Assembly (NCBI GenBank): GCA_025450235.1
Contig: JANWHX010000294.1
Coordinates: 1-56,113 of the forward strand
Length of the DNA stretch: 56,113 bases
Direction of reading: 5' to 3'
Origin: Chitinophagaceae bacterium
GTDB lineage: Bacteria > Bacteroidota > Bacteroidia > Chitinophagales > Chitinophagaceae
Shown here: piece by piece, positions 23,855 through 56,018 of the stretch
How positions within the stretch are numbered: the stretch's first letter is position 1
How the letters are laid out: the number at the start of each line of letters is the position of its first letter
Made by a program: the position numbers and the translations under genes
Notes under the pieces: model-generated
Seen by the model: the letters and a program-made list of their open reading frames with translations, nothing else
Told to the model about the DNA's origin: nothing
Databases searched by the model: none

Positions 23855-24790
23855 TTAAAGTTTATACTTGTGAATACAATGGGCATAGTGATCCGTTATG
23901 TAAACACAACCATCGCTACCTGTTGCAATGCCCAGGGGAAAATATTTATCGTCCTCAAAAATTCCGGTGGCGAGCCATTGGGCTTTCGAAGCGCCGTTAC
24001 CATCTAATTCTTGGATGCGGAAATTATACCGGTCAGTTATATAGATATCGCCGGCTGCGCTCACCGCCAGGCCATGTGGTTCGCTGAATTGCCCGGCTTT
24101 TGCATCTTTTCCTTCTCCGTATTCCCCGATCCGCTTTACAAGGGTGCCATCTTTTGAAAAGATTGCCAAACGATGATTTTGCCTGTCGCTCAGGATTACA
24201 TTCCCTTCTTTAGTTATCGCTATTTCATGCGGCATATATAATTTAATACCGATACTTTCCGCGGAGCCCCATTTTGACAGGAATTTGAGGTCCGCCGTAA
24301 ATTTCTTTATACAATAATTGAATGCATCGATGACATATAGCACGTCATTATTATCAATTGCAATCCCATAAGGATATTTCAATTGTGCATCTCCTGTTCC
24401 ATATGATCCAACCGAGCCAATATAATCACCTTTCGAAGAAAATTTCTGAACACGATTGTTATTCATGTCGGAGACGTACACGTTGCCTTTTGAGTCTATC
24501 CCAATGCCGTAAGGATAATTAAACTCACCGGCACCCGTACCGAATTTGCCCCACATCTGGATAAAATTTCCGTTGGCATCAAATTTTTGTACACGATGAT
24601 TATGCTGATCCACTACATATACGTTCGAATCTTTACTGACAGCCAGCATTGCAGGGAATTTGAACTGGCCGGGCTTATCGCCAAACTCTCCCCATTTGGT
24701 TACCATAACGGCGCCCGTTTGCGAAAGAGCAACAAGGCTGGTTAGAGTACTGGCGACAAGAGTTGAAATTATATAGATATGCTTTTTCAT
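23855..24790 (-). CDS. NHL-repeat six-bladed beta-propeller protein
   Basis: Signal peptide. Six repeats of the form YPYGIAID..G.VYV.D..N.R(V/I)QKF. Confidence 0.8.
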   Translation of the reverse strand: MKKHIYIISTLVASTLTSLVALSQTGAVMVTKWGEFGDKPGQFKFPAMLAVSKDSNVYVVDQHNHRVQKFDANGNFIQMWGKFGTGAGEFNYPYGIGIDSKGNVYVSDMNNNRVQKFSSKGDYIGSVGSYGTGDAQLKYPYGIAIDNNDVLYVIDAFNYCIKKFTADLKFLSKWGSAESIGIKLYMPHEIAITKEGNVILSDRQNHRLAIFSKDGTLVKRIGEYGEGKDAKAGQFSEPHGLAVSAAGDIYITDRYNFRIQELDGNGASKAQWLATGIFEDDKYFPLGIATGSDGCVYITDHYAHCIHKYKL

Positions 24791-33220: not shown

Positions 33221-34789
33221 TCATTCCACTATTATTCTGAATGTATCACGCAGACAAAGATATTTATCATGAACCGTATATTCAGATATTCCTGGAGTTG
33301 GCGAAATTCGGATAGTGCGGGTCTTTTGTTTCGTGTTCCATTCATAATCTCCCACAAATGAAGCGGTCAAAGCAATGGTCTGTCCTTTTTTGAGATGGAT
33401 GATCGTATTCCAGTTTACATTTTTCATGATCGTAAACTGGTCACGTATTACACCATCTTCACATATCCATTTTAGGTCAAGCCGGTTTCCGTTCACTTCA
33501 AGCATATTCGCTCCGCCATGAATAGAATCTGCATAATACATTGCGTTGTGTGGCCAGGTAGGCTGAACCGAACTAACAGTTTCCGAGGAGGCACCGGTCA
33601 CAACATACACGGTTCCCCGATTCGTTGAATCTTTGATATAAGGACAGGAATTGCGATTGCCATTGTAAAGGCCCGAAGAATTGCCCAGGTTGTATTTCGC
33701 CGCGTCGAAACTTCCTTCAACTCCATAGTGTCCGTGCATTAACCGTGTACGTTCATAATTATGGGTGTGGCCGCATAAAACAAGATCAACACCGTAACGT
33801 TCCAGCAACGGTACCACATTTTCTCTTATCCTTGACTCCATATCATTGTCGGAGCTATGTGAACCCATACTATAGGGTGGATGATGCCAGTAAGCAATGA
33901 CCCAATCCGTATTTTTATTCTTAGCCAAATCTTTTTTTAACCACTGAAATTGGATTCCTGTTGTGTCGGACAAATTCGTACTGTCCTGTTGGCCAAAAGA
34001 ATCCAGCGCTATCAAATGGATGTTCCCGATATCATATGAATAAAATGCCTGGTTATGCGATGGAACTCCGCCGCTTTCCCCGTTTTCAGGCATCGAAAAT
34101 ATTTTAAAATAATCCAGTTTACTATGATCCAGGAAAGCGCTATCATCGTTGTCCCAATAGTCGTGGTTACCCGTGACCGGGAACACAGGATATTTTTTTA
34201 GCATGTTCTTGTAAATATTAAAGAACTCAACCTGGTATTCCGCGTCTAATCCAAAATTATAAGCGTTGTCTCCAAGTGTGATCCAGGCCAGCATATCCTT
34301 GCTGCCAAGATATTTTGAAAATTGGTCACGGACTTGCGGCTGCATGGTAGTAAGACTTCCCGGATCGCCAAATACACCGATACGCAAACCCCCCTTTTCA
34401 CCAGCCGGCGGTAACGTAATAAAAAGATTGTTAACGTCACCTTGTAACACCACATCTTTTGAACCTATCGCATAATAATATCTTGTTTTAGCGTCCAATC
34501 CCTCCAGTTTTACCATATGATCAATAACAAGAGTATTGTCAAACGCCGTCTTATCAAGATGACCCGGTGCCTTGCCAAACCGAACAGAACTGGAGCTGGC
34601 GATATCCGTCCTCCAACGTACAATGATGCTGTTGTCGCTGAGGACCTGCAGATAGGGTCCACGTATCAATATGGGTTTTGGCTCCGCTTTTTTACTTATG
34701 CTTCCAATGTTGTCGTGGATTGAATAATCGAATGCGCTATCAAAAGAAGACATTGTGACAAGATATATGGCTACAAATAGATACTTCAT
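33221..34789 (-). CDS. purple-acid-phosphatase-like metallophosphoesterase (paralogue 3 of 3)
   Basis: Contains the five PAP blocks: GVFGDPG, LGDNAYNFG (GDxxY), TGNHDY, WHHPPYS and CGHTHNYER. A conserved C-terminal ~90-aa domain is present (WICEDGVIRDQFT). Confidence 0.8.
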   Translation of the reverse strand: MKYLFVAIYLVTMSSFDSAFDYSIHDNIGSISKKAEPKPILIRGPYLQVLSDNSIIVRWRTDIASSSSVRFGKAPGHLDKTAFDNTLVIDHMVKLEGLDAKTRYYYAIGSKDVVLQGDVNNLFITLPPAGEKGGLRIGVFGDPGSLTTMQPQVRDQFSKYLGSKDMLAWITLGDNAYNFGLDAEYQVEFFNIYKNMLKKYPVFPVTGNHDYWDNDDSAFLDHSKLDYFKIFSMPENGESGGVPSHNQAFYSYDIGNIHLIALDSFGQQDSTNLSDTTGIQFQWLKKDLAKNKNTDWVIAYWHHPPYSMGSHSSDNDMESRIRENVVPLLERYGVDLVLCGHTHNYERTRLMHGHYGVEGSFDAAKYNLGNSSGLYNGNRNSCPYIKDSTNRGTVYVVTGASSETVSSVQPTWPHNAMYYADSIHGGANMLEVNGNRLDLKWICEDGVIRDQFTIMKNVNWNTIIHLKKGQTIALTASFVGDYEWNTKQKTRTIRISPTPGISEYTVHDKYLCLRDTFRIIVE

Positions 34790-34825
34790 GTTCTTTTTTC
34801 AAAATATTATACCACCCGATGAGTT

Positions 34826-36400
34826 TTATCTTGAAACATTTACTTCAAAAATATCTTTCAAACATCCGAATTTGTCATTTACCGTGTACGTTGTCTTTCC
34901 AACTGGTGGGACAATCTCGATCGTACGTTGATCCTGTTTGCTTTTGTTCCAAATATATTTATCGCTGATAAATGAGGCGGTTAATTTCACGGCTTGTCCT
35001 TTTGCGGATTGAATCACCGATTTTTTGTTTACATTTTTCATCAGGGTAAACTGGTCCCGGATCACTCCATCTGCACAGATCCATTTAAAATCCAAGCGGT
35101 TCTCCTGTACCTCGAGCATGCCGGCGCCGGCATCCGTTGCATTTGAATAGCGCATGGCTGCATGCGGAAAACTGGTATCCGGTTTTCCTACATAACTGGA
35201 AGTACCACTTACGACGTACACGGTACCATGATCGGGAGAAGCCCCTTTAATATAAGGGCATGAGTTTTTACTTCCATTATATAAACCGGTGGACGGACTT
35301 AGACTGTATTTCTTTTCATCATAATCAGCTTCCTTTCCAAAATAGTTGTTGATTAAACCGGAGCGTTCATATACATGGCTGTGACCACATATGATTAGGT
35401 CAACCCCATACCGCTCGAGTATGCCGATAAAATTCTGACGTATCGCGGACATGATGCCGTCTGAATCGGAATTGTGAGTGCCCATAGAGTAGGGAGGGTA
35501 ATGAAAAAATGCGATCACCCATTCTTTATTTCTGTTGGCTTCAAGATCTTTCTTGACCCACTGAACCTGCGGCCCCAGCGTATCAAAGAGAAAATATTTA
35601 CTTTCCTCTTTTCCGTAAGAATCCAGCGACAGGAAATGAATATTGCCAAGATCAAAAGAATAAAACGCCTTATTGTGGGACGCCACTCCGCCTCCTTCGC
35701 CATTCACTGGCATAGAAAAATTCTGATAGTAAGCAGTTGAATGATTATTCTGCGCATAATTTGCTGTGAAATCGACATCGTGGTAATCATGATTACCGGG
35801 ATTTGGAAACACGGGGTATTTTTTCAGGAGCTTATCCTGGAAAATATTAAAAAACTTCGCCTGGTATTCCATGTCCGACCCATCGTTATAGGCGTTATCG
35901 CCCAGCAGGATCCATGCGTTAAGAAGATCATTTCCCAAATATTTGACAAACTGATCACGCACGTTAGCCTGGTTAAGTGACAAACTTCCCGGGTCTCCGA
36001 AAACGCCAACCCGGTAAAATCCTTCCGTACCGCGTGCCGGCAACGTATAAAAATAGATTTCGTCTCCATATTGAAGTGTATCCTGCAAAGTGCCAATTGA
36101 ATAATAATATTTGGTTTTAGATTGGAGTGCTGTAAGTTTTATTTCATGCTCGGTTTTTAATGCCAGGTCGTCTTTTACGAGGTTGAGGTTACCGGCAACA
36201 GTTCCGTATCTCACCCTGCTCCTTGTGGAGGCGTCTGTTCTCCAGCGGATCACCATGCTTGTATCTGTCGCTACCTGTAGGTAAGGTCCCCTGATCAGCA
36301 AGGGCTTGTTTTTAAACCGAGGGTCGTTTTTTGGCGCTGAGTTCTGCGTCCAACCATTCATCACCATAAATAGAGACAACAATAAAAATAAATTCCTCAT
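34826..36400 (-). CDS. purple-acid-phosphatase-like metallophosphoesterase (paralogue 2 of 3)
   Basis: GVFGDPG, LGDNAYNDG, PGNHDY, FHYPPYS and CGHSHVYER, plus a signal peptide. Confidence 0.8.
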   Translation of the reverse strand: MRNLFLLLSLFMVMNGWTQNSAPKNDPRFKNKPLLIRGPYLQVATDTSMVIRWRTDASTRSRVRYGTVAGNLNLVKDDLALKTEHEIKLTALQSKTKYYYSIGTLQDTLQYGDEIYFYTLPARGTEGFYRVGVFGDPGSLSLNQANVRDQFVKYLGNDLLNAWILLGDNAYNDGSDMEYQAKFFNIFQDKLLKKYPVFPNPGNHDYHDVDFTANYAQNNHSTAYYQNFSMPVNGEGGGVASHNKAFYSFDLGNIHFLSLDSYGKEESKYFLFDTLGPQVQWVKKDLEANRNKEWVIAFFHYPPYSMGTHNSDSDGIMSAIRQNFIGILERYGVDLIICGHSHVYERSGLINNYFGKEADYDEKKYSLSPSTGLYNGSKNSCPYIKGASPDHGTVYVVSGTSSYVGKPDTSFPHAAMRYSNATDAGAGMLEVQENRLDFKWICADGVIRDQFTLMKNVNKKSVIQSAKGQAVKLTASFISDKYIWNKSKQDQRTIEIVPPVGKTTYTVNDKFGCLKDIFEVNVSR

Positions 36401-36412
36401 TGTTTTACTTCA

Positions 36413-37978
36413 TCATTTAGACACGTTAACTGTAAAAACATCTTCAATACAATTGGATGGATCCTTTACTTTATAAACAGAAGTGCCGGGACGCGGCTTA
36501 ATTGTGATGCTTCTCGTAGTTTTATTAGATCCTTCCCACCGGTACTGTCCCACGAAAGATGCTTTTAGTTCAACAGATTGACCACGTTTTACTGTGATCG
36601 TGGATCTTTTATTGACATTCTTCATTAGCGTAAACTGGTCGCGTATGACTCCGTCTGCGCAGATCCATTTCATGTCAATCCGATTACCCTCAATTTCCAG
36701 CAAAGTAGCGCCACCGATCGTGACATTTGAAAATGGAAGAGCGTTATGTGGAAATGTGCTTTGCGAGTAATCCACCCTGCCAGAAGAGCCGGTCACAATA
36801 TACACTGTGCCTCTGTTAGAACTATCTTTTACAAACGGACAGGAGTTTGCAGACCCATCATATGCTCCCGAAGAGTTACTTAACAAGTGAATTTCAGTGG
36901 AAAAACTAGCTTCGGGTCCATAATGCCCCTTCATTAATTTGGAACGTTCATAAGAATGACTGTGCCCGCATATTACAAGATCAACTCCATATCGCTCAAG
37001 TATCGGGATAAAATTCTGCCTGATCTTCACCATCTGGGTTTCACTATCAGAATTATGAGAGCCCATAGAATAAGGTGGATGATGCCAGTAGGCGATAATC
37101 CATTCCTTGCCTTTATTTGCTTCAAGATCTTTCTTTATCCATTTTACCTGGCTGCCGGTTGTATCAAACAATCTTGTGCCATAGTCCTCTTCACCCTGCG
37201 AGTCTAACGAAAGAAAATGGATATTATCAATATCAAAGGAATAAAAAGCGGAACTATTAGAGGACACACCACCTGCTTCACCCCGGGTTGGCATCGTGAA
37301 GTTCTGGTAATAGGCCACTTCACCCGAGCGTTGAGCCACCTCCGCAAGCATAGGCAGATCCTGGTAATCATGATTACCCGGTGCGGGGTACAACGGTGAT
37401 TGTTTGAGAAGAAAATCCTTGTAAACGTTAAAGAAATTCGATTGATATTCCACATCCTTTCCAAAAGAATAAGCATTGTCTCCGACAAGTATCCATGCGT
37501 TCAGAGGATTGCTGCCAAGTTTTTTTAAAAACTGGTCCCGGACGTTATGTTGGATAGTTGAGTTTGTACCACAATCACCAAAAACACCTATGCGGTATTT
37601 ATTCTCCGCACCTGCAGGCGGCAATGTAGTGAAGTGATTGCTTTCATCCCATTGAAGCGTGTCTTTGAACCCTTCAATCAGATAGTAATACTTTGTATAA
37701 GGCTCGAGGTTTGTTAATGTAACAATATGCTCATGAGTACGGCTGCCATTACCCGCAAGCCCGTCAAATTTGCCTTCTTGTTTGCCGTATCGTACAAAAC
37801 TTACATCCAACTCATCGGTCCGCCATCTAACTATGATACTGGTCGGTGTAGCTACCTGCAGGTAAGGCCCCCTGATTAATTCCGGTCGTATGCCATAATA
37901 TCTTTTGGGGTTTATCTGTGACCTTACAATAAACGGAAGAAAGATCAAAAAAAGGAAGTATAGAATTGTCTTTTTCAT
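36413..37978 (-). CDS. purple-acid-phosphatase-like metallophosphoesterase (paralogue 1 of 3)
   Basis: GVFGDCG, VGDNAYSFG, PGNHDY, WHHPPYS and CGHSHSYER, plus a signal peptide. Confidence 0.8.
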   Translation of the reverse strand: MKKTILYFLFLIFLPFIVRSQINPKRYYGIRPELIRGPYLQVATPTSIIVRWRTDELDVSFVRYGKQEGKFDGLAGNGSRTHEHIVTLTNLEPYTKYYYLIEGFKDTLQWDESNHFTTLPPAGAENKYRIGVFGDCGTNSTIQHNVRDQFLKKLGSNPLNAWILVGDNAYSFGKDVEYQSNFFNVYKDFLLKQSPLYPAPGNHDYQDLPMLAEVAQRSGEVAYYQNFTMPTRGEAGGVSSNSSAFYSFDIDNIHFLSLDSQGEEDYGTRLFDTTGSQVKWIKKDLEANKGKEWIIAYWHHPPYSMGSHNSDSETQMVKIRQNFIPILERYGVDLVICGHSHSYERSKLMKGHYGPEASFSTEIHLLSNSSGAYDGSANSCPFVKDSSNRGTVYIVTGSSGRVDYSQSTFPHNALPFSNVTIGGATLLEIEGNRIDMKWICADGVIRDQFTLMKNVNKRSTITVKRGQSVELKASFVGQYRWEGSNKTTRSITIKPRPGTSVYKVKDPSNCIEDVFTVNVSK

Positions 37979-37997
37979 ATTGGCTAAATCAGCGCCT

Positions 37998-39791
37998 TTA
38001 TTTTAATAAAAATGTTCCGGAGTTTTTATAATCATCGTCACTACCCCAAATTGGCTTCCAATACAAAGTGGCCGAGGTTTTCTCTGGGAAATTATCCTGG
38101 TCACGATACCCGATATTGACCCGGACCGAATTATCTGTCTTTGTTAGCGTAACAGCAGGCAGGGTGATATCCATCATTAAAATAGAATCAGAAAAATATC
38201 TTTTTGTCTTTATGTCTTTGGCCCCAATGCTACCCTTTCCTTCGATAGTTATTTTGCCATCGCCCGGTGATATTGTCAACAAAATTTGCCGACCGGCTGA
38301 ATCTTCAACATAGAGAAATAAAAGATCCCTGGGTTTTGATGGATCGTTTATCCATTGGTCATCATTTACCAGTACAACCAGGTGAATTAATTTGCTATCC
38401 TTTATTAATTTAAATCGGAAAAAAACATCACCGGGACCCGACCAATACCATCTTCCATCGAGTTGTTCAGGTTCTACTACCGCAATCATACCCGAAGTAT
38501 CCTGCCCGTGATATACTTGCCTGGCTGGGTTGGTATTGTTTGATTCCAGGGGAACAAGTTTCCAGCTAAGCAGGAGTCTTTTATTGGCTGTTATCGAATA
38601 GGATGTATTCTTGTATGAATATTCGCCCATTAAAGAAATATCGACAAAAGGAAGATCAGCCAAATCAACCAATGAGTTATCCTTTTTCGAAATTGTTATA
38701 GGCTGTGTGATTGTTTGGTGCGGTTCAACAATCGCATTTATTTCACAGGGAGTTACCAAATATTGTTTTTTATCGCACAACTGTCCGGTTACTTTAAGGG
38801 GATAGTCCGTCGGATTATCCAATTTTATTTCCGCCGTTAAGGCTTTCTCCTGTTGATGTTCGCTTACCAAGGAAACCGGGTGTAACCAGGTCTGATCAAT
38901 CAATGCCTGCGTAATTGAATATGTAGTGTCATTGACCACATCTTCTTTTATTATACCCTGCAATTTTAAATTCACAATCCTGGGTTCGCCGCTGGTGAGA
39001 GTAACTATTGTCAGGTGATCATATTCGCCAAATTTTTCTCCCCGCAGGTCGCTTCCTCCTCCGGTACTGCCCAGAACAAAATATTTATTCCCGTTCTTCA
39101 TCATCTTTACGTAGGTGTGATGATGGCCGGAAAAAAGGGTATAGTTATTTCCTTTCAGCAGCGCCTCAATTTTTTCGAAACCTTCTTCCCTCTCATTTCT
39201 ACCTTGCCAAACCGGCCGGTGCATGAAAAGAAAGGTCCAGCGTACGCCGGCATTATCTGCTATCGCTTTCTTAAAATAATTTACCTGTTCGTCCCGGATG
39301 CCTCCATGCCCTCCATCTTCCGTGTTTATGCACAGGAACAATACATTCTTGTAAACAAAATGATAATAGGGCGGACCAACATATTTTTTCCATTGCTGTT
39401 CCATTAAAGGATTGCCGATATCGTGATTCCCGGGAACATAAAAGAAACGCATTCCCAGAGGTTTGATATCTGCATTAAACTCCTGCCATTGTCTTTCAAT
39501 AACGGCAGTATCGTAAGTTTTTCCATCAGTGAGATCGCCTACAGATATTACAAATTGAGGTTGTAATAGCTGTAGTTTTTCAACTGCATCCTCAAATACA
39601 CCGGGTCGCCTGCCGCCCCACACGTCAGAAATGATTGCAAACTGTAATTTGCCCGTATCATCATTGAATGGAAGGTTGGTGGAAGACATACGGTTCCCCG
39701 TACCTTGCTGAGCAATGGTAACACTTGCGGAAAGAAGAATTAAATAAATGACAAGTGTCCTTCTTGCAGTAGTGGCCGCTTTCAAATTCAA
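37998..39791 (-). CDS. calcineurin-like metallophosphoesterase with ~330-aa C-terminal beta-rich domain
   Basis: FAIISDVWGG, VGDLTDG, PGNHDI, FMHRP and SGHHHTY motifs. This is a different subfamily from the three PAP-like genes. Confidence 0.75.
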   Translation of the reverse strand: MNLKAATTARRTLVIYLILLSASVTIAQQGTGNRMSSTNLPFNDDTGKLQFAIISDVWGGRRPGVFEDAVEKLQLLQPQFVISVGDLTDGKTYDTAVIERQWQEFNADIKPLGMRFFYVPGNHDIGNPLMEQQWKKYVGPPYYHFVYKNVLFLCINTEDGGHGGIRDEQVNYFKKAIADNAGVRWTFLFMHRPVWQGRNEREEGFEKIEALLKGNNYTLFSGHHHTYVKMMKNGNKYFVLGSTGGGSDLRGEKFGEYDHLTIVTLTSGEPRIVNLKLQGIIKEDVVNDTTYSITQALIDQTWLHPVSLVSEHQQEKALTAEIKLDNPTDYPLKVTGQLCDKKQYLVTPCEINAIVEPHQTITQPITISKKDNSLVDLADLPFVDISLMGEYSYKNTSYSITANKRLLLSWKLVPLESNNTNPARQVYHGQDTSGMIAVVEPEQLDGRWYWSGPGDVFFRFKLIKDSKLIHLVVLVNDDQWINDPSKPRDLLFLYVEDSAGRQILLTISPGDGKITIEGKGSIGAKDIKTKRYFSDSILMMDITLPAVTLTKTDNSVRVNIGYRDQDNFPEKTSATLYWKPIWGSDDDYKNSGTFLLK

Positions 39792-44868: not shown

Positions 44869-44986
44869 TGCGGAGGAGCAGGGATTCGAACCCTGAAACC
44901 TTGACACGCTTTCTAACATTGAATTCGAACCAAATACACGACTACGAAAAATGCAAACTAATTCTGGTCTCCGAAATTACTCCTCA
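44869..44986 (-). other. tRNA-like element: intact T-arm and acceptor 3' strand, no complete cloverleaf
   Basis: The minus strand ends ...CAGGGTTCGAATCCCTGCTCCTCCGCA, a canonical T-stem/loop plus a 7-nt acceptor strand. A complementary GAGGAG followed by TA lies 118 nt upstream. The interior is ~30 nt too long and lacks an anticodon arm. Confidence 0.35.
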
Positions 44987-45019: not shown

Positions 45020-45532
45020 TCATTTCAAATCTGTCTCGACTTTTATATTCATTGGCATTAACGCTTTGTGTAGATATTCAAATCTAGCCTTGCTGCCTTT
45101 TGGAACTTGAACTTCATAAAAGTTTCGACCGCATATTAGTGGCCAATTATCTGAAAAATATTTATAATCGATAACTACAGGAATGATGTAAAACTTATCA
45201 TATTCATAGCAATGACTCGTGTCGGCACATTGCATTTTTTTTGCTTTAGCTTTTAATTGATTGCGATTATTAAGAAAATTAACTCTGATTCCGTTTTTGA
45301 AAACAATACTTATATTGCTATCCTCCAACATCCTTAAATTGAAGTAATTCACTGGATAAAAAAAATCATGAAAACCTACAGGTCTTGCATGAACTCCATC
45401 GTAATCATACAAATAATTATAACTTGACAAAAACAAAAAACCTTTTTGCTTCTTTACTAAAGTCGTGTCTTCTTGTGCAGAGCAAATCATTGAATTTAAC
45501 GTAACTAAGAGTATCGCAGCAAGTATTTTAAT
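45020..45532 (-). CDS. orphan immunity-like paralogue; canonical ATG replaced by ATT
   Basis: The track ORF starts at the internal Met (45490). The in-frame upstream codons encode IKILAAILLVTLNS-, which aligns with the signal peptide MKILVLAIACLSFS of the paralogue. The start position reads ATT and is preceded by a stop. Confidence 0.45.
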   Translation of the reverse strand: MKILAAILLVTLNSMICSAQEDTTLVKKQKGFLFLSSYNYLYDYDGVHARPVGFHDFFYPVNYFNLRMLEDSNISIVFKNGIRVNFLNNRNQLKAKAKKMQCADTSHCYEYDKFYIIPVVIDYKYFSDNWPLICGRNFYEVQVPKGSKARFEYLHKALMPMNIKVETDLK

Positions 45533-45795
45533 TTATCTATTTTTATTGTGATAGCTCTGGCTTTCAAAGCCGCCGTGTTTATCCGGACAAAGCAAATGTG
45601 AAAGAACACTTAGCACAATGGCGCCTTATCATAAAAATCCTAAAGTCGAATTTGTCTTATTGGAATTATAACAATAGAGAGAACCGAGAGTATCGGGAAA
45701 TTGAACAATATTCGCTGACCTCATACCGCCACCTCACTATCAAGCCCATCAAAAGGTAGAACATTGGCAATATCAGAACTCACCGCATTGAATTT

Positions 45796-46305
45796 CTATT
45801 TCTGCTTCTGAATTTTTATATTTATTGGAATTAATGCTTTATGAAGGTACTCAAATCTAAGCCTGCTACCACCAACTACTTGCAGCTCATAATAGTTTCG
45901 GTCGCATACATATGGCTCATAATCCTCGAACATTTTGTAATCCATTGTAACAGGAACGATATAAAAACTTGAGTATTGATAACATTGGCTACTATCTATA
46001 CAATTAATAGAAAAACTCTGAGTTTTTATCCCATACCTCCCATTGATAAATTTGATTCGAATACCATTCTTAAAGACAATATTCAAATTGCTGTCGAGGA
46101 TACACTTGACATCTAGACAGGAGGTTGGATAGTAAAAATCATGAAATCCTAAAGGTCTGATATGTGTTCCCTCAGAATCGTACTGATAATTATATTTTGT
46201 CAAGAATAAGAGGCCTTTTTGCTGCCTTCTCCTGATTGTATCAGTTTGAGAGTAAGAAATTGATGAAAAGCTCAAACATGCTATCGCCAAAACTAATATC
46301 TTCAT
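45796..46305 (-). CDS. cognate immunity-like protein with Sec signal peptide
   Basis: The ATG at 46305 (MKILVLAIACLSFSSISYSQ) lies 7 nt after the Rhs stop codon (46313-46315). The longer track ORF would overlap the Rhs 3' end. Confidence 0.6.
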   Translation of the reverse strand: MKILVLAIACLSFSSISYSQTDTIRRRQQKGLLFLTKYNYQYDSEGTHIRPLGFHDFYYPTSCLDVKCILDSNLNIVFKNGIRIKFINGRYGIKTQSFSINCIDSSQCYQYSSFYIVPVTMDYKMFEDYEPYVCDRNYYELQVVGGSRLRFEYLHKALIPINIKIQKQK

Positions 46306-46312
46306 GGCAATT

Positions 46313-49300
46313 TTATTTTTTAATTGTAATTCTTCGCGGCTGCCAACCCTGAGGAATATCCCCAGCAGCGGGAGCTGATCTTGTGGAGGCATCGATAATA
46401 CCTGCCACATTGATCGTATTCGAGTTCGTCCGAGACTCTGGCCGTAAATGAGCCTCACTTTTTATTAATTTAAAAATAGTATAATTTACAATATCATCAT
46501 AATGACTTTGATTTAGGTTATTTGAAGACGATCCCATTAAATCGTTCTTATATCCGACGTGAGCTATTGTTCTATGATCGCTCGGATTCTTAGGATCTTC
46601 GTACTCGCTATAACGATCAGTTAGTCCTAGCATATGGCCAACCTCATGCGTCCTGCCGACATAAGTTGTGCTCGGAATGATTGCCTTACTGTAGCTTCCC
46701 GATAGACTCCCTCTTCCCTCTTGAGTCTTCGACTTATCTACCTCCATTATATTCTCGTGGGCTTCCAAGTCCTCTTGCTTAATTTCATCTTTGCCCACTT
46801 TGGCCTCAGCACTTATATCAAATTTTAGAGTGTAAGTTACCTCTCCAATTTTTACAGTACCATCCTTAAAAACATCTTTAAGTTCCTTATTGACCGCTTC
46901 CATCAGAACATCTCGGGCATTTTGATTTCTAGGTAGATCTTTACCTTGATAATAAATTTTAGCTTTAACAGTTATAGTTTTTGTGTTTTCGTCTAAAGTG
47001 TAAACTGCATTTTGCCCGTCCGGATCAATAACGTTAGCAGGATTGTTTACTGCATAATTATAAGGAGAATATGTATTCCATTTATCAGCCTTTGGGTCCA
47101 GCGCATGCCATCGTCCGATCTGTGCATCATACATCCTTGCGCCATAATCCAACCATTCCAATCCAATCCCATCTGTAAATTCTTTATCTTGTTTTTCTTT
47201 GCCATTATACTCATTCTTATTATCCGGGTTTCCGAAGTTTAAAGCCTTCGAGCTAATTGCTGCCATTACTAACCCAAACGGATAATAATGCGTTTCTTCG
47301 GTTATGGGACCTCGCTCATGTTTCACCTGTAAATTATCAAAGTACACTAAGTTATTACTTTCATTGCTAACAAAGACGTATGCGTAGCCATTTTTAACAG
47401 CTTCTTTGGCGCTCCCGTCCACCCTTGTTATCGTTTGGCCGCTACCTTTTGTATCCACCTGTATGATTTCACTGTTTGTGCTGACAAATCTAAACTGTTC
47501 GTCAAAAAAAATAATTGTTACGTAGGCTTTAGGCATGGCGCCCCCGCTTCCTGCCTGCGGCGCGAGGAAATTCGTAAAGGGAGTTACGTTGTTTAAATTC
47601 GACGTTATTGTACTGCCGCTGCCGTGAACCGCGGTAGTTACACTGCTATTGTCAACCAGGCTGGTCAGCAAGGTTAATATTGAATTTAGGCCATTGGCGC
47701 CACTATTATCGGTCGCATCATTCTGGATGTAATAATTCACCTTTATATGGAGTTTGTCTTTGGCCATTACTTTTAGCAATTTTCCGACACCTATTCTCGT
47801 GGTACTGTTTCGCAAGAGTTGGACTGTATCCCCATTTGTTCCTTGCGAATAGAAAGATCCCGGCCTGCTTGTCCGTCCGACATATACGTTTTCGTAGAAG
47901 ACGTTTTCATTATTTACCGTCAGATTCTCCAATTTCGCCTCAGGATATATTGCTGTGTCCTTTTGCTCCGTCAATACCATTCTTATGTTGCCTAAGTGAT
48001 CTTTAATAAAGTAATCGTATTGCAGTGTCGCATTGGCAACATTAAACCTTATCCTTCCTTCTTCCATACCCATAAATTCCAGGGTGTCGTTACGGTACAC
48101 GGACCCGCACATATAGAGCGTAGTAGTCACCAGGCTTCCTTCTGTCGTTACTTTCTTCAGTTTACTGCCTGATGCATCATACATGTATTTTATATTTCCT
48201 TTACCCGTCACCGTTATACTGTCAGGCAGGTTCAGGTGGTTATAACGGATATGGCCGATCGCCTTATTATTGTCGATATACATATTACCGTTGCCATCAT
48301 AACTATAATCATTATTACTCCCATTGGAACCGTCATAAAAATCACCCAGCTGATTGTTTGAGCTGATGCCGTCCACTACCTTTAACAACCGATTACTATT
48401 GGCAATGAAAGTATATGCCATGCTGTCAATTGTTGTAGGAGCGGTCAGTTTCCAACCTCGTTGTTTCATGGTCATGATATTGCCATTGACGTCATAGCTT
48501 AAACTACTTACACTGAAATCAATACCGGCATTTTTACTAAAGCTGTTGTTAGTTAGCTGGTTAAAGTCTGCTCCGGTAAGGCGATTGGCCGCGTCGTAAG
48601 TAAAATCATATTTCCTTAACTGATCATCACCGGTGGATTTCCACAGCAATCCTTCTATATTACCATTGTATTGAGCGGTTGAATACGATTTATTGCTCCC
48701 ATTTACAATAAAATTTGTCTTTTCGTAACCCAGGTCATATCCAAATAGATTAGATGAGCTGGTCGTATCTTTGACGTAACTGCGGTTCATCCCAAGCAAC
48801 CATCCACGAATGTTATATTCATAAGCCATAGAATCCAACGGAACACCTCCTAATTTCTTCTTCTTTAGCTGGCTTATCGCATCGTACTCATTTTGACAAA
48901 TAGTTGTCCAGCCGCCGGGCATGCTGCCACCGCTTACCACGGTATTGCTCGCTCTTTTCTCAATCTTCGTTAGTCTGCCAAGATCATCATAAGTGAATTT
49001 CGTCAGCGCAATTGTCGTTTGCGAATTTGTTCCACCTTTTACGTGCTTTTTGATATTTAAAAGCACCTGGCCCGACCAGGAATATTGGGTGCTTATTATA
49101 TCTGTATTGCCACTTAGGTTTTGTCCTTGCACCTGTATTGCTCTTGAATTTTCATCAAAAAAGGTAACTAAATACAGATAGTTTGATGTACCCAATACTT
49201 TTGTTTTTGTGCCTGTCGCCAGACCCAATAACCTCGTTGTTTGTCCCGTTGCGTCCTGAGGATATGGCCATACCGTATTAGAGGTGCTTTGTAAATAGCT

Positions 49301-50626
49301 GTCATTACTGTTATCTCTGGCTGAAGATAAAGGATTGCCTTCGGAACTTCTCCAGGCATAACTATCATAAAACATTTGAGAAAGTATTTCGTTTGTATAA
49401 CTGCCCAACGCCGGATAATCAATACTGCCTTCTGCAAGGCCGCGATGGTAGGAAGCGCTACTGTAATGAGCGTCATCAGTTATCCAACCCATTGAATCGG
49501 GCCGATTCAGATCATCATACTTTGTGTACAACCATTTGTGTGCTGCCCTTAGTAATGAATCCTGTGACATCACCAACCGGTCTCTGGCGTCATAAATCAT
49601 ATAAACTGTTCCGGCGCCTGGCACTTTCTTCATGATTATTCGGCGCTGGCTATCATACTCGTAACGAAAACATTGCTCATTAAGCAATACTCCACTGGAG
49701 TAACTTAGATCCCAACCCGTGATTGCCAATACTCCAACGCCTTTTGGTTGGATAACACATCTCAGCTGGCCAAGATCATCATAAATGTAGTAAGTGCAAA
49801 GCCAGCCAGTATGGTTTTTTCCGGCTCCCGCATCACTGCTGTCTGAAACCAGTTGCACTTTCTTCAATATTACCCTGCCTTCCTTGTCTGTAAATTCTAT
49901 ACTCTGTTTATTGTGTTCATCAGCCGTTACATTCTTGTACAGTTGCCCTGCTTCATATATAGACGAGGTAGCGTAGCTACCAAAGTTATTCGTTACGTCT
50001 GTCACGTTCCATACTCTTACACTGTCTGCTGTTTTGTTGGTCCATGATTTCGTTTTCACACTACGCCTATTGGCTTCATTTGTTTCTCCGGATGTACCCA
50101 CCCAGCTATTGCCTTGGGAGAAGCGTTCCAACACACGATTTACTGGCGACCCTTCAAAAACCACCTTGCCGTAGTAATATGTTTCATCGCTAAATATTGC
50201 TTTATTAAAAGTCGAATCTTGCTGGAATGGATTGAGTTTAAACAAACCATCACTCATCGACGTATTGCTTCCCGTATTATTGGCAGCAAACGGTAAATAT
50301 TGATATACCTCTCTGCCAAACTCGTCATAGACAACAGGCATCACAAAGTCTCTCGCAGTATCACCAGTTATCAATGATCCTTTTTTAACTACGGTTTGCA
50401 AAGGTTGACCGAGACCATCAAGATACTTTGTAATCTGTTTAACATCCTTCAAAAATCTTGTCAATAACGTGTCGGGATGGTCAATTGGCGCCGTCGCGTC
50501 CCAGGTTCTGACATAGTTTATTTTGACATTGGTGTTGTAAGCAACTGGGGCAATTTGCTGTGCTTCAATTATATTTACAACTAATGTTGCCAACAACGCA
50601 AGGAATATTTTTAAATTGCAGTTCAT
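46313..50626 (-). CDS. Rhs/YD-repeat polymorphic toxin with Sec signal peptide and C-terminal zinc-metallopeptidase-like tip
   Basis: Many YD repeats (YDDLGRL, YDAANRL, YDVNGN, YDGNGN...). The core has DHLGNIRMV ... [18 protein letters not shown] ... NVIDPDGQN (DPxG at 47009-47026). The 231-aa tail carries [11 protein letters not shown] (46616-46648). The start at Met20 ([24 protein letters not shown]) gives a signal peptide. Confidence 0.9.
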
Positions 50627-50645
50627 CAGATAAAGAATTTGAAGG

Positions 50646-53600
50646 TTATTGTTGATAGCTGGCCTGGTATCTATAATCCACACGCTTTATTATCTTCTTA
50701 TCTTCATCTTTTATCAATTTCAAGCGACCAAAACTGTCGTACTCATAATAAGTGATTCTGTTATTAGCATCGCACTGGGTGCTTGTTCCAATCAGGGGAA
50801 TATAGGTATAGGAGATCATTAATGCACCCTTCGGATAAAGTCGCATCTCATCAATATAGGCTGTGCCGGCGATTGTTAAACTTGTTGTCCCCGAAATTTC
50901 GTGTGAGTACAATTTCCAGCCATTCTTTGTCACGAGGACGGTGCCATTCCCGCTATTCACCGTAACAGTACTCGAACTATCTCTCTTCCAGTACGTGATG
51001 TTATACGTAGTCCCGGCAGTAAGTCCGGACTTTGTAATGTTCCCTCCCGCAAGACTGTACCCCTTTGTCCCGGTAGGTGCTGAAGGATGGGTTGTTGTTG
51101 AGCCGGAAAATGACCAGTTTCCCTTGCCGTCGGCTTCAAAAGAGGTAAATGCTATCGATGCGCTGTCAGCGTTCGTCACTTGGGCAATGGGATAGGCCTG
51201 CTGATAGTCCCAGACATAAGACAATTTAATATCATTCTCTTTCGAAACAGTAAGAACGTTTCTCTTGTTGTCGTAAGATGAAAAGCGCAACTTCGTTTGT
51301 AAACTGTTATTTAAGACACGTTGCTCTACTGTAGCAGGTGCAATGAACGAATTTCCCTGCCAAAATTGATAATTTGTTTTTGTCTTTGATAATTCTCTAT
51401 TGAGCGTAATATTTTTTTGTGATTGCTCAATCACCGCCGTAATCATATTTCGCGAGATCATATCGGTATAAGGTGATGTGCCTGAAAAATCATGAGGATA
51501 CTTATTAGTCGTGGATATGGAATCTCCCTTCGAATTCTTCTGCTTGACAAGCGTAGGTTGCATATGAGCCAAATTACCATAGGCAAACGATTGAGCGATA
51601 GTCAAAGAGTCCCCGGTATCGGTGTATGTTTTTGTTATGCTGGTATCGAGATGCATCCAGTTAGAATAAATGAAATACTTGTTTACATCATAATGAATAA
51701 AATATTTAATCCAATTAAAATTAAGCATAGGTGTTAGCGTGCGCCTGATCGAATAGAGCGTGTCCTTAAATGACCACCTCGAATCTATGGAATAGATATT
51801 TTTTGTCCTGCTCGCAATAAGTTTTGTCGTCGGGTTACTCATTTTGAAGACTGTCGTTTCCAGTTCGGCTCCATTATGTAAATCGGTATTTGTCCAAGGT
51901 CCACCTGGCACAGTTATCTTTGCATACGTTGAGTCGGTGAAGTTTGCCGGCCAACCATATATGATATCTTGCTCTCCAAGGTATTGCGGTTTCGTCTTCC
52001 CATTTATTAAGAATTTGTGTTCAATACCACCCGTCACATTGTCTGATTTATCCCTAAATTCTTCCGTAACATTGGTGTACTGTGGATTACCCATTCCATT
52101 CATATATAGAGGAAACTGAGAACTGGAAAACAGCTGCATAAGAGTATAGACATAAAACTGTCCGTCGCTTATCACTTTAGTTCCCCGATATGCCTGATAA
52201 AACAAGTCCTCGCTGTTTGGATTGAGTAACGACGGCAGTAAATTAGCGGTAGCAACAAGCTTATACTGAAAGGTTCTTTTATTTTGTACTTTACCAAGTC
52301 CATCATTATCATATAGGCTTTTTACCCTCAGGCCCCCAGCGGGAGTAAGTGGCTGAACACTGCTCGGCAAAAATCTGAATATTCTTATAGTAAAGTCAAC
52401 TTCGGGCGGGTAGGTAGACTGGACAGTAACCGTGTAGGTATCCTGATTGGCGATGTACATATGTGGCAAAAAGTAAGGAGCCCAGACACTGCCTATATAA
52501 CTATAGATCGTTTCGTTGCTGCTGTTTTTAATCGTAACATAAATGTTCATATCCGGCTCTGGCTCCTGCGGCTCATTTTCGCCTGGGGGCTCGTATGGGT
52601 CTGCAGAGGGCACGATAGAGAATTTTGAAACGCCCGGGTAGAGAGTAAAGGATGATGTAGTGTATAAATTATTCGACGGATTAACACTATTACTAAAATT
52701 GAGTGTGTCAAAGATCGGTTTCCAACTTAGAAATGAATCAGCCGGTTCGTAGGTATAATCTGTATATCCACCCGTTGGATATGTAATCTTTTTCAATATT
52801 CCTTTTTGACAACTCTCAAAGTGGCCCCGTCGGTCCGCGCCAAACTCAAAGCCGCCCCACAGATACATTCCCCCCGGCGTCCATGCAGGGAAGAAGTTCA
52901 GATCCTGGCCCGATATCCCGTTGTAATAACCCCAATAGTCCTGCGCATAACTTAATCTTGGTGCAAGAGAATTGAAGTCATTATACTCAAATTTATATGA
53001 TAGCGTATCCGGTCCCATATAATCATTGACCGAAGTAAGAAATAGCCTTTTACGTAACTCCGGGTACAGTGCCTGAATTGTAGAGCCTGACCAAACGTAC
53101 TGTTTGCTATCATATGCGGTGCTGGAATTATACGAATATTGATATCCAAATTTGTATTTTTTGACTACTAGAGAATCGGTGTTTTGAATATGCAAACTGT
53201 CCAATTTCTTTTCACCGTCGATATCATCCCTCGAAGAATAGAACAATTTCACTTTGCCGCCAGGGAATTTAATCTCTTTCAATACTCTACCTGCATACAC
53301 GGTAAGCTGGTAACAGGTTTTATATGGATATTCCGAATAAGAAAATTCCAAATAATTGAATAAATAAAGCGGCTTGAAAGAATAGGTTTGATTCACACCG
53401 GTGAGGTAAGTTGCACTAACTCCCTCATATTCATAATTTATTGTCTGGCCGTTTGTAAGGCGTATAGTACTTAGATACCAGGCTGTTTGGGGCGCACTGG
53501 ACCCAAATTCCGATATACATTCGCCACCACCGCCGCCGGGAAGCGAAGTATTTTCTGCCACGTCACCCCCGTTTGGACCGAAAATAAAAATGTTGCCATC

Positions 53601-54194
53601 CGGCGTGACAATGCGAAAACTGTCAATTTCGCCATAGAGAGTTATTTGCAAATTATTATATGGCAACTGGATAATGTTCCAGTTTTTATCTAGAACAAAC
53701 GATCCCGAGTATCCCGGAATAGAGTAATTAAACATATCCGGATGAGCTTCCTCCCATACACCACCGGCTCCCGCTATTTCAAGGAAATCATAAAAGCCCC
53801 AGCTTGCCGTATCATGAGTTGAGGGCCGGCAACTTTCCTGATCAGTTTCATCAGGATTGCCAATAATCGTTCTGTTGATTACACCTGCAAAGTCCATTTT
53901 CCATTGCATGCCTACACGGCTCGCGACTTCATCTACTCTCAGACCATTGGAACTATAACTTAGAGAGATCGGGATTGTGATCCCGTTAAGTTTTAAATTA
54001 TAGAGAGGTACACTGTAAGAAACCGTGCCGCTAAACAGGCCAATCGGATTGTTACCAAATTTCCCAATTGCAAATGCCTCGGGCGTGGGAGGAATTACAG
54101 TTGGAAGAACATTGACGTCAGCAGGCGATTCTTGCCCAAAGATTCCCCTGACTGTAAAAAGCAACGCGAATAAAATTAAAAGTGATCGTTTCAT
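50646..54194 (-). CDS. large secreted protein with SpvB/TcB-like N-terminal motif and terminal YD-like repeat
   Basis: Signal peptide. [33 protein letters not shown]...VGMQWKMDF resembles the SpvB-domain pattern (G.aslSlPl...g.g..P.LsL.YnSg.gn...G.GW). The C-terminus reads ...[17 protein letters not shown]. Confidence 0.55.
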
Positions 54195-54225
54195 TTTACA
54201 TCATATTATTGGTTCAATGGCAATT

Positions 54226-54579
54226 TTACTGGGTGGATGTGGTTGGTCTCATTTTCCTTGTGATCATCTGTACATACCTTTCATAGACTTCAGTGCCTAA
54301 GATTGTTTTAAGGCGGCTATTCGCTTGAATTCTCAGGGCCTGTACCTGGTCGCTCTGCTGGACTCTTGTTAGGGTGGAATTTAAACGAACATCGCGTACC
54401 GCTGCATTGTAATCATTTTTCTCAGTTAAGAATTCTGCGATGACGCTGTCACTTAGCTGCAGCGAATCGCGCATCATTTTCTTTTGAACTGAATCAAGTT
54501 GATTTGATAATGTACTCCCTTGGCTAAAACACGAAGCCGACAAAAAGAAAAGTGCTACGTTTAGAATTACTGTTTTCAT
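54226..54579 (-). CDS. small secreted helical protein
   Basis: Signal peptide MKTVILNVALFFLSASCFSQ. The 117-aa protein is helical with L-x-x-Q-like repeats, possibly Spy/CpxP-like (unverified). Confidence 0.45.
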   Translation of the reverse strand: MKTVILNVALFFLSASCFSQGSTLSNQLDSVQKKMMRDSLQLSDSVIAEFLTEKNDYNAAVRDVRLNSTLTRVQQSDQVQALRIQANSRLKTILGTEVYERYVQMITRKMRPTTSTQ

Positions 54580-54590
54580 TTAGCATTTTT

Positions 54591-56018
54591 TTAAAAATTA
54601 TAGCCAACTCTAAAAATTACCGGCTGAGTCCTCGGCACTTGCTGATAACTCAAAAAATCCCAGAGCAACTGCAACTTTGTCTTCTTAAAGAATTTACTTT
54701 TTACATTTAAAACCTTACTGGCTCCCAATAGGCCGCTTTGTTGCCAGGCGGAACGGTCCTGAAGTATACTAAGACTATTGAAAGCAGTTCTATAATTCAT
54801 TTCATAACCACCACTTATCCAAAAGCCACCTTTCAACTTCCAGTCTATGTAACTTCTGAGTCCGGCACCTTCATTGGTAAATTTTATATGATTCCATCCC
54901 TGGCCCCATCCCAGCTTGTAACTAGCGCCGATACCAATGATTGATTTATTATTCAGTTTATAGCCTAAAGACAAACCAACGTCACTTATTACAGGAAAGA
55001 AATTGGTGGCCTTCTGCGTTTGAATGTTGGCACCGTACTCGAGTCGCTTCCAAAAGCTTTTTGTTTTCTGATCGTTTGGTTTAAATCCTTCGGGCATGAC
55101 GTCATCACTGCTGCCCCCATCGAATTGACTTATTTTATTTTTTAACTTATCTATTTCTGATTGGGCGCTCTGCATGTTTTGACGAAATTGGTCCATCGCG
55201 CCGGGGCCGCCGGATGCGATTTGTTGCTGAATGAGCGTATTTACCTGCACCCTTGTTTGCAAACCTGCAAGATTGGCCAGTGTCGCAGGATCATTCGGGT
55301 CACTTGGAAAACGAAACAAGGACGCAATCATGCTGTTCTTCCGCATGAAGTCCTGGAACAGTTTTGTCTTACTTAATAACTCAATCGCCTTGCGCTCTGC
55401 TTTCCGCGAATCTTTGAGTAGTTCTCTATATTCTTTTATCTGTGCAGAGTAGTAGTAAACCTCTTTATTGAATTTCTTTAGTTCTTTCACCAGTCCAAGA
55501 TTTTCCAATTGAACTTTCAATTGCTGTCTTCTTTCCCGGATAAACTTTTTTATCTCTTCAGCTTGCTGAAACTTTCCCTGAAGCAATTCAGTTTTAGCGA
55601 GGGCGTCTTGTACTTTTCCAGTAATACCATTCTGTTCAAGAAATTTTAATGATGTAGTCAGCGTATCAAGCTTGGGGATGTACTGTTTGGCAGCGCCGGG
55701 AATCGGAGGATTTTCTATTTTATTCTTGAGAGATTTGTATTTATTCTTGATATCGCCCAGTGCTATCTTTGCCTGCAATGAATCCTTTGTGGCAAGCATC
55801 CGGCGATATATTTTTTCCTCATGCTTCTGTAGTTTGCCGAGTGTCTTCAGAGAACTGGCTATGATCTTTTCCTGTAGTTGCTCAGCTTTTCTTTCGATGG
55901 AAGCCGACCATTTTTCGGGATCAATTTTGTCTAAGAGCGAATCAAGTCTATACTGTGAAAAGGAAAAAACTCCGGTGAGTAGGAATACAATAATCAGCAG
56001 AATTCTCAGTGTGGTCAA
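54591..56018 (-). CDS. secreted protein: long coiled-coil N-region plus C-terminal small beta-barrel (outer-membrane-protein-like)
   Basis: Signal peptide. About 330 aa are heptad-rich and K/E/Q-rich. The last ~140 aa have alternating hydrophobic beta-strand patterns and a terminal ...FRVGYNF (C-terminal Phe, as in OM barrels). Confidence 0.5.
   Translation of the reverse strand: MTTLRILLIIVFLLTGVFSFSQYRLDSLLDKIDPEKWSASIERKAEQLQEKIIASSLKTLGKLQKHEEKIYRRMLATKDSLQAKIALGDIKNKYKSLKNKIENPPIPGAAKQYIPKLDTLTTSLKFLEQNGITGKVQDALAKTELLQGKFQQAEEIKKFIRERRQQLKVQLENLGLVKELKKFNKEVYYYSAQIKEYRELLKDSRKAERKAIELLSKTKLFQDFMRKNSMIASLFRFPSDPNDPATLANLAGLQTRVQVNTLIQQQIASGGPGAMDQFRQNMQSAQSEIDKLKNKISQFDGGSSDDVMPEGFKPNDQKTKSFWKRLEYGANIQTQKATNFFPVISDVGLSLGYKLNNKSIIGIGASYKLGWGQGWNHIKFTNEGAGLRSYIDWKLKGGFWISGGYEMNYRTAFNSLSILQDRSAWQQSGLLGASKVLNVKSKFFKKTKLQLLWDFLSYQQVPRTQPVIFRVGYNF

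Follow-up and report, generated by a model that had tools for sequence, protein, structure and literature searches.

A Sec-type Rhs toxin operon with a TcB-like protein and a predicted outer-membrane partner in Chitinophagaceae

Organisation of the operon

The window analysed here is a 56,113-nucleotide (nt) stretch of DNA from a Chitinophagaceae bacterium (GenBank assembly GCA_025450235.1, contig JANWHX010000294.1), and its main subject is an operon of six genes, all on the minus strand, which encodes a predicted Rhs toxin together with several exported partner proteins. We label the genes A to F in the order of transcription and give all coordinates on the whole window. Gene A (54591-56018), read from a TTG start, encodes a protein of 475 amino acids (aa) with a signal peptide, about 290 aa of predicted helices, a linker and a predicted C-terminal 8-stranded barrel. 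It is followed by B (54226-54579), for a small helical protein of 117 aa with a signal peptide, by C (50646-54194), for a protein of 1182 aa in which a signal peptide precedes a toxin-less, TcB-like Rhs/YD half-shell, and by D (46313-50626), whose 1437-aa product combines a signal peptide, a DUF6443 domain, an Rhs shell, an Rhs-associated core and a predicted C-terminal toxin. The operon closes with E (45796-46305; 169 aa, with a signal peptide), the putative periplasmic immunity protein cognate to D, and with the orphan paralogue of E, F (45020-45532; 170 aa).

A check of the open reading frames (ORFs) of the window, with coordinates and gaps re-read, bore out the initial annotation of six co-oriented frames at these positions, the first five of them separated by only 7-31 nt. 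The gaps measure 11 nt between A and B, 31 nt between B and C, 19 nt between C and D, 7 nt between D and E, and 263 nt between E and F. We count D from the ATG that provides its signal peptide (the mechanical ORF reaches a GTG at 50683) and E from its own ATG (the mechanical ORF reaches a GTG at 46458).

As read from the sequence, the N-termini of A-E each consist of a basic residue, a hydrophobic core of 10-14 residues and a small-x-small site followed by Gln, which fits the Sec-type signal peptides first assigned to these five products. A Gln at position +1 is consistent with the Bacteroidetes 'Q-rule' for substrates of signal peptidase I. A crude test found a hydrophobic N-terminal segment in 85 of 95 members of the A family, 99 of 114 members of the C family and 60 of 68 members of the D family, compared with 167 of 345 control ORFs. 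The closest matches to A and to C are both proteins of Chitinophagaceae.

The Rhs toxin D and the TcB-like protein C

Protein D carries the domains of a Sec-type Rhs toxin, as had been proposed from its translation. Behind the signal peptide lies DUF6443, the N-terminal signature of this Rhs class (aa 40-184, encoded at 50075-50509 on the minus strand; Pfam, E 3.8e-30), and towards the other end the Rhs-associated core TIGR03696 (aa 1114-1205, 47012-47287 on the minus strand; NCBIfam, E 1.6e-12), which is matched over model positions 1-76 of 76. The core contains DPxG-type autoprotease motifs and ends in ...LDPKAD...VIDPDGQ, the predicted autoproteolytic release site, directly before the C-terminal domain. 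The repeats of the shell in between are individually weak (YD_repeat_2x, E 0.0028; RHS_repeat, E 0.056), and several YDxxG motifs can be recognised among them. The shell as a whole is 28-58% identical to Rhs genes in 78 related loci.

The C-terminal domain (aa 1206-1437, 232 aa; 46316-47011 on the minus strand) contains an HExxH zinc-metallopeptidase motif, read from the translation, and gives a weak match to Peptidase_M6 (E 0.0066). Only six homologues were found among 5.8 billion proteins, mainly short 'RHS repeat-associated' cassettes. Neither this domain nor protein E has a homologue in 160 related loci, though the shell of D is conserved there; E thus varies together with the toxin. Since the D shell, A and C are conserved while the toxin domain and E are variable, and since extra Rhs fragments follow downstream in many loci, the region has the typical marks of a locus for polymorphic toxins whose predicted delivery scaffold is conserved. 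D itself is a polymorphic Rhs toxin by its domain content, the toxicity of its C-terminal domain being predicted.

E lies directly behind D and has no match in Pfam or NCBIfam, like B and F. We consider E likely to be the cognate periplasmic immunity protein, a putative role that follows from its position, its signal peptide and its co-variation with the toxin. Protection in the periplasm by this putative immunity protein would also suggest that the target of the toxin lies in the envelope or periplasm. F is 51% identical to E over 166 aa. The sixth frame of the initial annotation is indeed present; its start at 45532, however, is an ATT immediately after a stop codon, and the first ATG, at 45490, would delete the signal peptide. 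F may therefore be either an orphan gene in decay or one that uses a rare start codon. In the spacer between E and F (45533-45795), the plus strand holds the tail of an unassigned frame of about 70 aa, ending in ...HLAQWRLIIKILKSNLSYWNYNNRENREYREIEQYSLTSYRHLTIKPIKR before a stop codon, which may be a gene remnant.

Protein C belongs to no Pfam or NCBIfam family, and the SpvB model (PF03534) finds no match in it even at E <= 10. Among 27 members of its family, RHS_repeat was matched in 12 and SpvB in two (best SpvB E 7e-6). The sequence of C has an SpvB-like N-terminal region and a YD repeat, YEYDSFGRL, at its end. Its AlphaFold2 model (predicted local distance difference test, pLDDT, 79; predicted template modelling score, pTM, 0.77) retrieved as top Foldseek matches the mosquito protein SGS1, YenB and TcdB2-TccC3, together with TcdB1, at E 1e-17 to 1e-18 and TM-scores (TMq) of 0.26-0.31, compared with a TMq of about 0.1 to Rhs proteins of type VI secretion systems (T6SS) and to teneurins. 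By sequence, the sole match of the C family profile in the PDB was again YenB, in the equivalent N-terminal region, and was not significant (E 0.36); searches of solved structures with the sequences of A, C, D and the toxin domain likewise gave no significant match. The family of C exceeds 1161 homologues. We conclude that C is a toxin-less protein whose predicted fold is TcB-like, with modest TM-scores. The 'SpvB-motif' protein of the initial annotation has thus gained a structural counterpart and, as described below, a regular genetic one.

Could C and D then form an anti-eukaryotic, Tc-like toxin directed against grazers or hosts (amoebae, nematodes or insects, for example), in which the pair is a BC-type cocoon and some unrecognised protein replaces TcA? 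The best structural matches of C, namely TcB subunits and the mosquito SGS1, would fit such a role, as would the DUF5977 domains of some C relatives, a domain classed as an adhesin stalk (PMC8286594). However, no gene for a TcA-like large helical shell was seen in the contig, nor is one conserved near 80 loci anchored on C (one genome per species) or in the 160 related loci. The TcB beta-propeller that binds TcA (TcdB_toxin_midN/midC) had no Pfam match in C or in its 27 relatives. The hypervariable C-terminal domain of D, the co-varying small gene with a signal peptide, and the orphan paralogue and cassettes further speak against a eukaryotic target. To our knowledge, canonical Tc subunits also lack Sec signal peptides. 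We therefore hold this explanation to be quite unlikely.

Synteny and the outer-membrane step

Is the arrangement of the window a common one? The 80 C-anchored loci come from Chitinophagales, Sphingobacteriales, Flavobacteriales, Cytophagales, Bacteroidales and Prolixibacteraceae, that is, from at least five orders of Bacteroidota. In 61 of them the next gene downstream of C is a DUF6443-Rhs gene, and most of the exceptions are truncated contigs. A homologue of A lies directly upstream of C in 27 of the 80, with a divergent 28th copy in one further locus (L040), and these A-bearing loci are almost all from Chitinophagales, with a few from Cytophagales; one locus (L056) has the permuted order C-A-D. 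A second set was drawn from metagenomes with A as the anchor. Of its 64 loci with at least 400 nt of downstream room, 63 have C behind A, and in all 30 with at least 6.5 kb the DUF6443-Rhs gene comes next. Two more A homologues on long contigs are followed by C, a glutathione-peroxidase-like gene, a DUF6443-Rhs gene and a small gene. With well over 100 independent loci sharing it, the gene arrangement is far above chance expectation. In the 38 loci with A, C and D, the counterparts of A are 55% identical to the window, those of the D shell 44% and those of C 30%.

The initial annotation had suggested testing whether A, B, C and D co-occur as a quartet. What we observe is a Bacteroidota-wide core of C and D, to which A is a lineage-specific addition: the linkage of A, C and D stands, mainly in Chitinophagales, whereas B is movable. 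A relative of C with 75% identity lies in the full order A-B-C-D-E, with a 119-aa gene in the position between A and C; elsewhere the small accessory gene sits between C and D and encodes a peroxidase-like protein in 18 loci and a helical family of about 112 aa in 15. Over its full length, B matches the hidden Markov model (HMM) of this ~112-aa family at a modest 19.9 bits (E 3.6e-8, B being the only sequence searched), and one member of the family gives a weak LTXXQ match. The link depends on the family HMM only, as phmmer with B against the related loci gave weak matches at best (E 0.03). B is probably a movable periplasmic accessory or a chaperone-like factor, judging from its sequence and position.

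The glutathione-peroxidase-like proteins (L022:14078-14611, L081:15739-16254, L082:15027-15539 and 15 other loci) are about 170-190 aa long, have a thioredoxin fold and a signal peptide, and occupy the slot between C and the Rhs gene that is otherwise taken by the LTXXQ-like small protein. Proteins of another family, 288-655 aa long, are encoded either upstream of C or in the C-D interval in L011 (14590-16059), L018 (914-7052) and 10 other loci, sometimes in tandem; one scanned member contains Big_7, and the family is missing from the window. A single conserved upstream partner of C was sought in the lineages without A and rejected, the neighbours there being a mixture of leucine-rich-repeat, fn3 and beta-helix proteins, one protein that carries a type IX C-terminal domain, and the Big_7-containing family of 12 loci.

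Protein A has no Pfam or NCBIfam family. In its AlphaFold2 model, long, coiled-coil-like helices (aa 2-296) are connected by a disordered or low-confidence linker to eight strands (aa 325-473), modelled at a pLDDT of about 70, and the sequence ends in ...RVGYNF with an aromatic C-terminal residue. Foldseek gave weak matches to 8-stranded outer-membrane barrels (OmpX, the OmpA transmembrane domain, OprF-N), all at E >= 0.01. These are generic small-barrel and helical-bundle matches, and we do not claim homology of A to a known family. The A family comprises 1725 clusters at 50% identity, all of about 470-500 aa. We conclude that A is a system-specific, predicted outer-membrane protein with a helical domain and a small barrel in its model. 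Since C (63 of 64) and the Rhs gene (30 of 30) follow it so consistently, A is a dedicated partner of the pair, which disposes of the concern that it might be a housekeeping outer-membrane protein.

Rather than an export device, A may be an outer-membrane anchor or periplasmic scaffold that tethers the C-D particle beneath the outer membrane, the toxin leaving the cell passively by outer-membrane vesicles or by lysis of a subpopulation. The eight predicted strands, as in anchors of the OmpA/OmpX type, are in line with such a role, and so is the fact that most C-D loci work without A; that A is the most conserved part (55% versus 30-44%) fits a contact with the conserved envelope, not with a fast-evolving toxin. 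Tc toxins exit through lysis cassettes; here, however, neither the operon nor the scanned part of the contig contains a holin or endolysin cassette, and the near-obligate linkage of A, C and D, together with an alternative linkage to a secretin described next, argues for an active outer-membrane step. All in all, we judge a scaffold or vesicle role for A to be unlikely, and we nevertheless treat it as a serious rival.

Six loci without A, from six genera, carry a gene set resembling a type II secretion system (T2SS) or a type IV pilus within 10 kb of C and D: L006:3429-13525 (Mucilaginibacter), L021:1790-12349 (a metagenome-assembled genome), L046:799-13441 (Flavobacteriaceae), L048:1-13345 (Polaribacter), L066:2718-13279 (Allomuricauda) and L076:9986-23015 (Pedobacter). 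This set encodes a secretin, a T2SSE ATPase, T2SSF, an N-methyl pilin and two conserved, unassigned proteins of 405 and 178 aa, in three arrangements; in both L006 and L021 its genes are closely packed with C and D and point the same way. By a rough estimate, such a set, present about once in each genome, stands beside C and D much more often than expected by chance. This suggests that the C-D modules enlist a device at the outer membrane, be it A or a secretin system.

Could C and D instead be cargo of a type IX secretion system (T9SS), or of a T6SS of subtype iii, encoded elsewhere, with A and B incidental? The analysis of the source genome covers this contig of 56 kb, and immediately upstream of C in one related locus (L054) stands a protein that has a type IX C-terminal domain. 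The operon itself lacks the marks of such machines. In Pfam and NCBIfam searches of the operon, carried down to E <= 10, we found no PAAR, VgrG, Hcp or POTRA and no type IX C-terminal domain of the A or B type (the sorting domain, Por_Secre_tail or type B, being absent from A-F at E <= 0.01 and from A-D at E <= 10). Of the further marks of T6SS Rhs effectors, DUF1795 was likewise absent, and D starts with a segment resembling a signal peptide. Two-partner secretion or contact-dependent inhibition would call for POTRA, ShlB or haemagglutination domains, none of which was found, and A has 8 predicted strands, not 16. A C-terminal sorting domain would moreover be incompatible with a C-terminal toxin that is cleaved off, and the tie of A to C in 63 of 64 loci means that A is not incidental. 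Sec signal peptides, as far as we know, are not a feature of T6SS effectors. Dependence on a hidden T9SS or T6SS thus appears very improbable, and both this explanation and an anti-eukaryotic role are less likely than a scaffold or vesicle role for A. In agreement with the initial annotation, no T6SS, T9SS, TpsB or phage-tail feature was seen in the operon or in the scanned ORFs of the contig; in particular, no T6SS gene occurs among the ORFs scanned at 12.8-44.7 kb, the ORFs of the first 12.5 kb lying outside the scan.

These scanned ORFs, from about 12.8 to 44.7 kb, form a polysaccharide utilisation locus with SusC/SusD, GH20, GH28, PIG-L and alpha-galactosidase genes. Within it, four tandem paralogues of about 520-600 aa each (33221-39791, minus strand) encode metallophosphoesterases of the calcineurin-like or purple-acid-phosphatase type; together with GH20, GH28, PIG-L deacetylases and alpha-galactosidase they make up a set of enzymes that is unusual for a SusC/SusD locus. 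The locus also encodes an NHL-repeat beta-propeller protein of 311 aa (23855-24790, minus strand), which matches the teneurin NHL model too; it lies about 22 kb from the Rhs operon and is probably unrelated to it. Between the operon and the SusC gene, a T-arm-like hairpin, CAGGGTTCGAATCCCTG, is found at 44879-44895 on the minus strand. A tRNA-linked island was considered on this basis and dropped, the hairpin receiving no ARAGORN tRNA call and from Rfam only a transfer-messenger RNA match at E 0.12; it is probably a chance occurrence or an old attachment-site scar. Promoter and terminator scans gave counts at background, Bacteroidota promoters being outside the coverage of the promoter scan.

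Relation to known systems and proposed mechanism

Which known system does the locus resemble most? Like TcB and TcC of Photorhabdus and Yersinia (TcdB2-TccC3, YenB-YenC), C and D are encoded by two adjacent genes, the first for a large toxin-less Rhs/YD shell with an SpvB-like N-terminus and the second for a protein with an Rhs core and a hypervariable toxin, and C and the shell of D together, at about 2340 aa, are similar in size to a BC cocoon. In contrast to the Tc system, the locus has no TcA, the propeller is not detected in C, all components carry Sec signals, DUF6443 forms the N-terminus of D, and the shell of D has a length at which it could close by itself. A dedicated, predicted outer-membrane barrel protein and immunity-type genes are present as well, and the target is likely bacterial rather than an insect. 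With the effectors of the T6SS (RhsA, Tse5, RhsP, Tre23-Rhs) the locus shares the cocoon, the aspartyl autoprotease motif of the Rhs core, the polymorphic toxin and a downstream gene for a (here putative) immunity protein; it differs in lacking PAAR, VgrG and a chaperone gene, in the Sec signal and DUF6443 of D, and in the TM-score of only about 0.1 of C. Bacillus subtilis WapA is a Sec-dependent Rhs/YD surface toxin that also has a downstream immunity gene.

Bacterial teneurin-like proteins were described as Sec-dependent, single-polypeptide YD shells with a teneurin superfold, an encased toxin, an immunity gene and a proposed surface display (PMC13018210). The likeness to our locus is a YD shell with a signal peptide around a C-terminal toxin, a predicted one here, with a downstream gene that in our locus is a putative immunity gene. 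Unlike these proteins, none of which was reported from Bacteroidota (PMC13018210), the locus is multi-gene and its product must cross an outer membrane too, and the model of C matches the structure 9ifo at a TMq of only 0.09. An earlier comparative-genomics survey by Zhang et al. (2012) already listed RHS polymorphic toxins of Bacteroidetes with signal peptides or SpvB-type N-terminal modules (PMC3482391). Its 'TcdB/TcaC-like export pathway' and 'T2SS' (signal-peptide-only) classes, as given in the portions of the survey considered here, resemble our system in these features, and differ in that SpvB and an integrin-like propeller form an N-terminal module; those portions do not mention a separate TcB-like gene, the DUF6443 class or a partner of the A type (PMC3482391). 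Searches for DUF6443, DUF5977, Sec-dependent Rhs proteins and Tc-like proteins in Bacteroidetes returned no description of the module, subscription journals being outside their scope, and DUF6443 is not mentioned in the searchable literature. The initial annotation had called the locus a candidate undescribed delivery system: no published description was found, while the likeness to TcB/TcC makes it a variant of a known toxin architecture. The module is abundant, unannotated and a variant of the TcB/TcC-type architecture.

Based on these observations, we propose that the locus is a Sec-dependent polymorphic Rhs toxin system for interbacterial competition, built on a TcB/TcC-like pair with a lineage-specific outer-membrane part, a reading to which we give about an even chance. 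Proteins A-E would cross the inner membrane by Sec, and C and D would join in the periplasm as TcB and TcC do, either in one big cocoon or with C capping the shell of D; B, or its LTXXQ-like or peroxidase-like counterparts in relatives, may help folding. The Rhs core would cleave off the metallopeptidase domain, which would stay enclosed, while E would neutralise any toxin that escapes in the periplasm of the producer. The barrel of A would span the outer membrane and its helices would reach into the periplasm, where A could dock the cocoon and mediate its passage to the surface or its presentation there, and in several lineages without A the linked secretin or type II-like set may replace it. 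Gene content and synteny are observed directly; the route of export or presentation is what we infer from them.

Several points weigh against this proposal. The TM-scores of C to TcB reach only about 0.3, no TcB propeller domain was detected, and the C of the window itself fails the Pfam SpvB model. The contacts between C and D and between A and C are conjectural. At about 1000 aa, the shell of D is long enough that it could close a cocoon alone, like the T6SS Rhs proteins, so that a composite C-D cocoon is not required. E as an immunity protein and the C-terminal domain of D as a toxin are both putative, and the family link of B is modest and partly carried by its signal peptide. A is missing from about two thirds of the C-D loci and is hence no universal requirement; its model has a low overall confidence (pLDDT 59.5, pTM 0.35), and a monomeric 8-stranded barrel, as predicted for A, cannot conduct a folded particle of about 250 kDa.

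More doubtful, and put forward only tentatively, is a further step: that A provides a Bacteroidota-specific, Sec-dependent route for a folded cocoon of more than 250 kDa, formed by the TcB-like protein and the Rhs protein, with an oligomer of A as a pore or docking ring, and that in Sphingobacteriia and Flavobacteriia the linked secretin sets solve this problem in another way. If true, this would give Rhs toxins a pathway of secretion or presentation that is new.

Soil and aquatic Bacteroidota commonly carry the module, yet A, the C of the window and most relatives of C match no Pfam family. Rhs toxins ride on the T6SS or on Tc complexes, or sit on the cell walls of Gram-positive bacteria, and no system described so far accounts for the exit of a Sec-exported Rhs cocoon from a diderm cell. 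The linkage of A with C and D, and that of the secretin set with the pair, offer a concrete genetic entry to this question of export. Tc-like cocoons are being explored as vehicles for protein delivery, and a variant free of TcA might be relevant in this respect as well.

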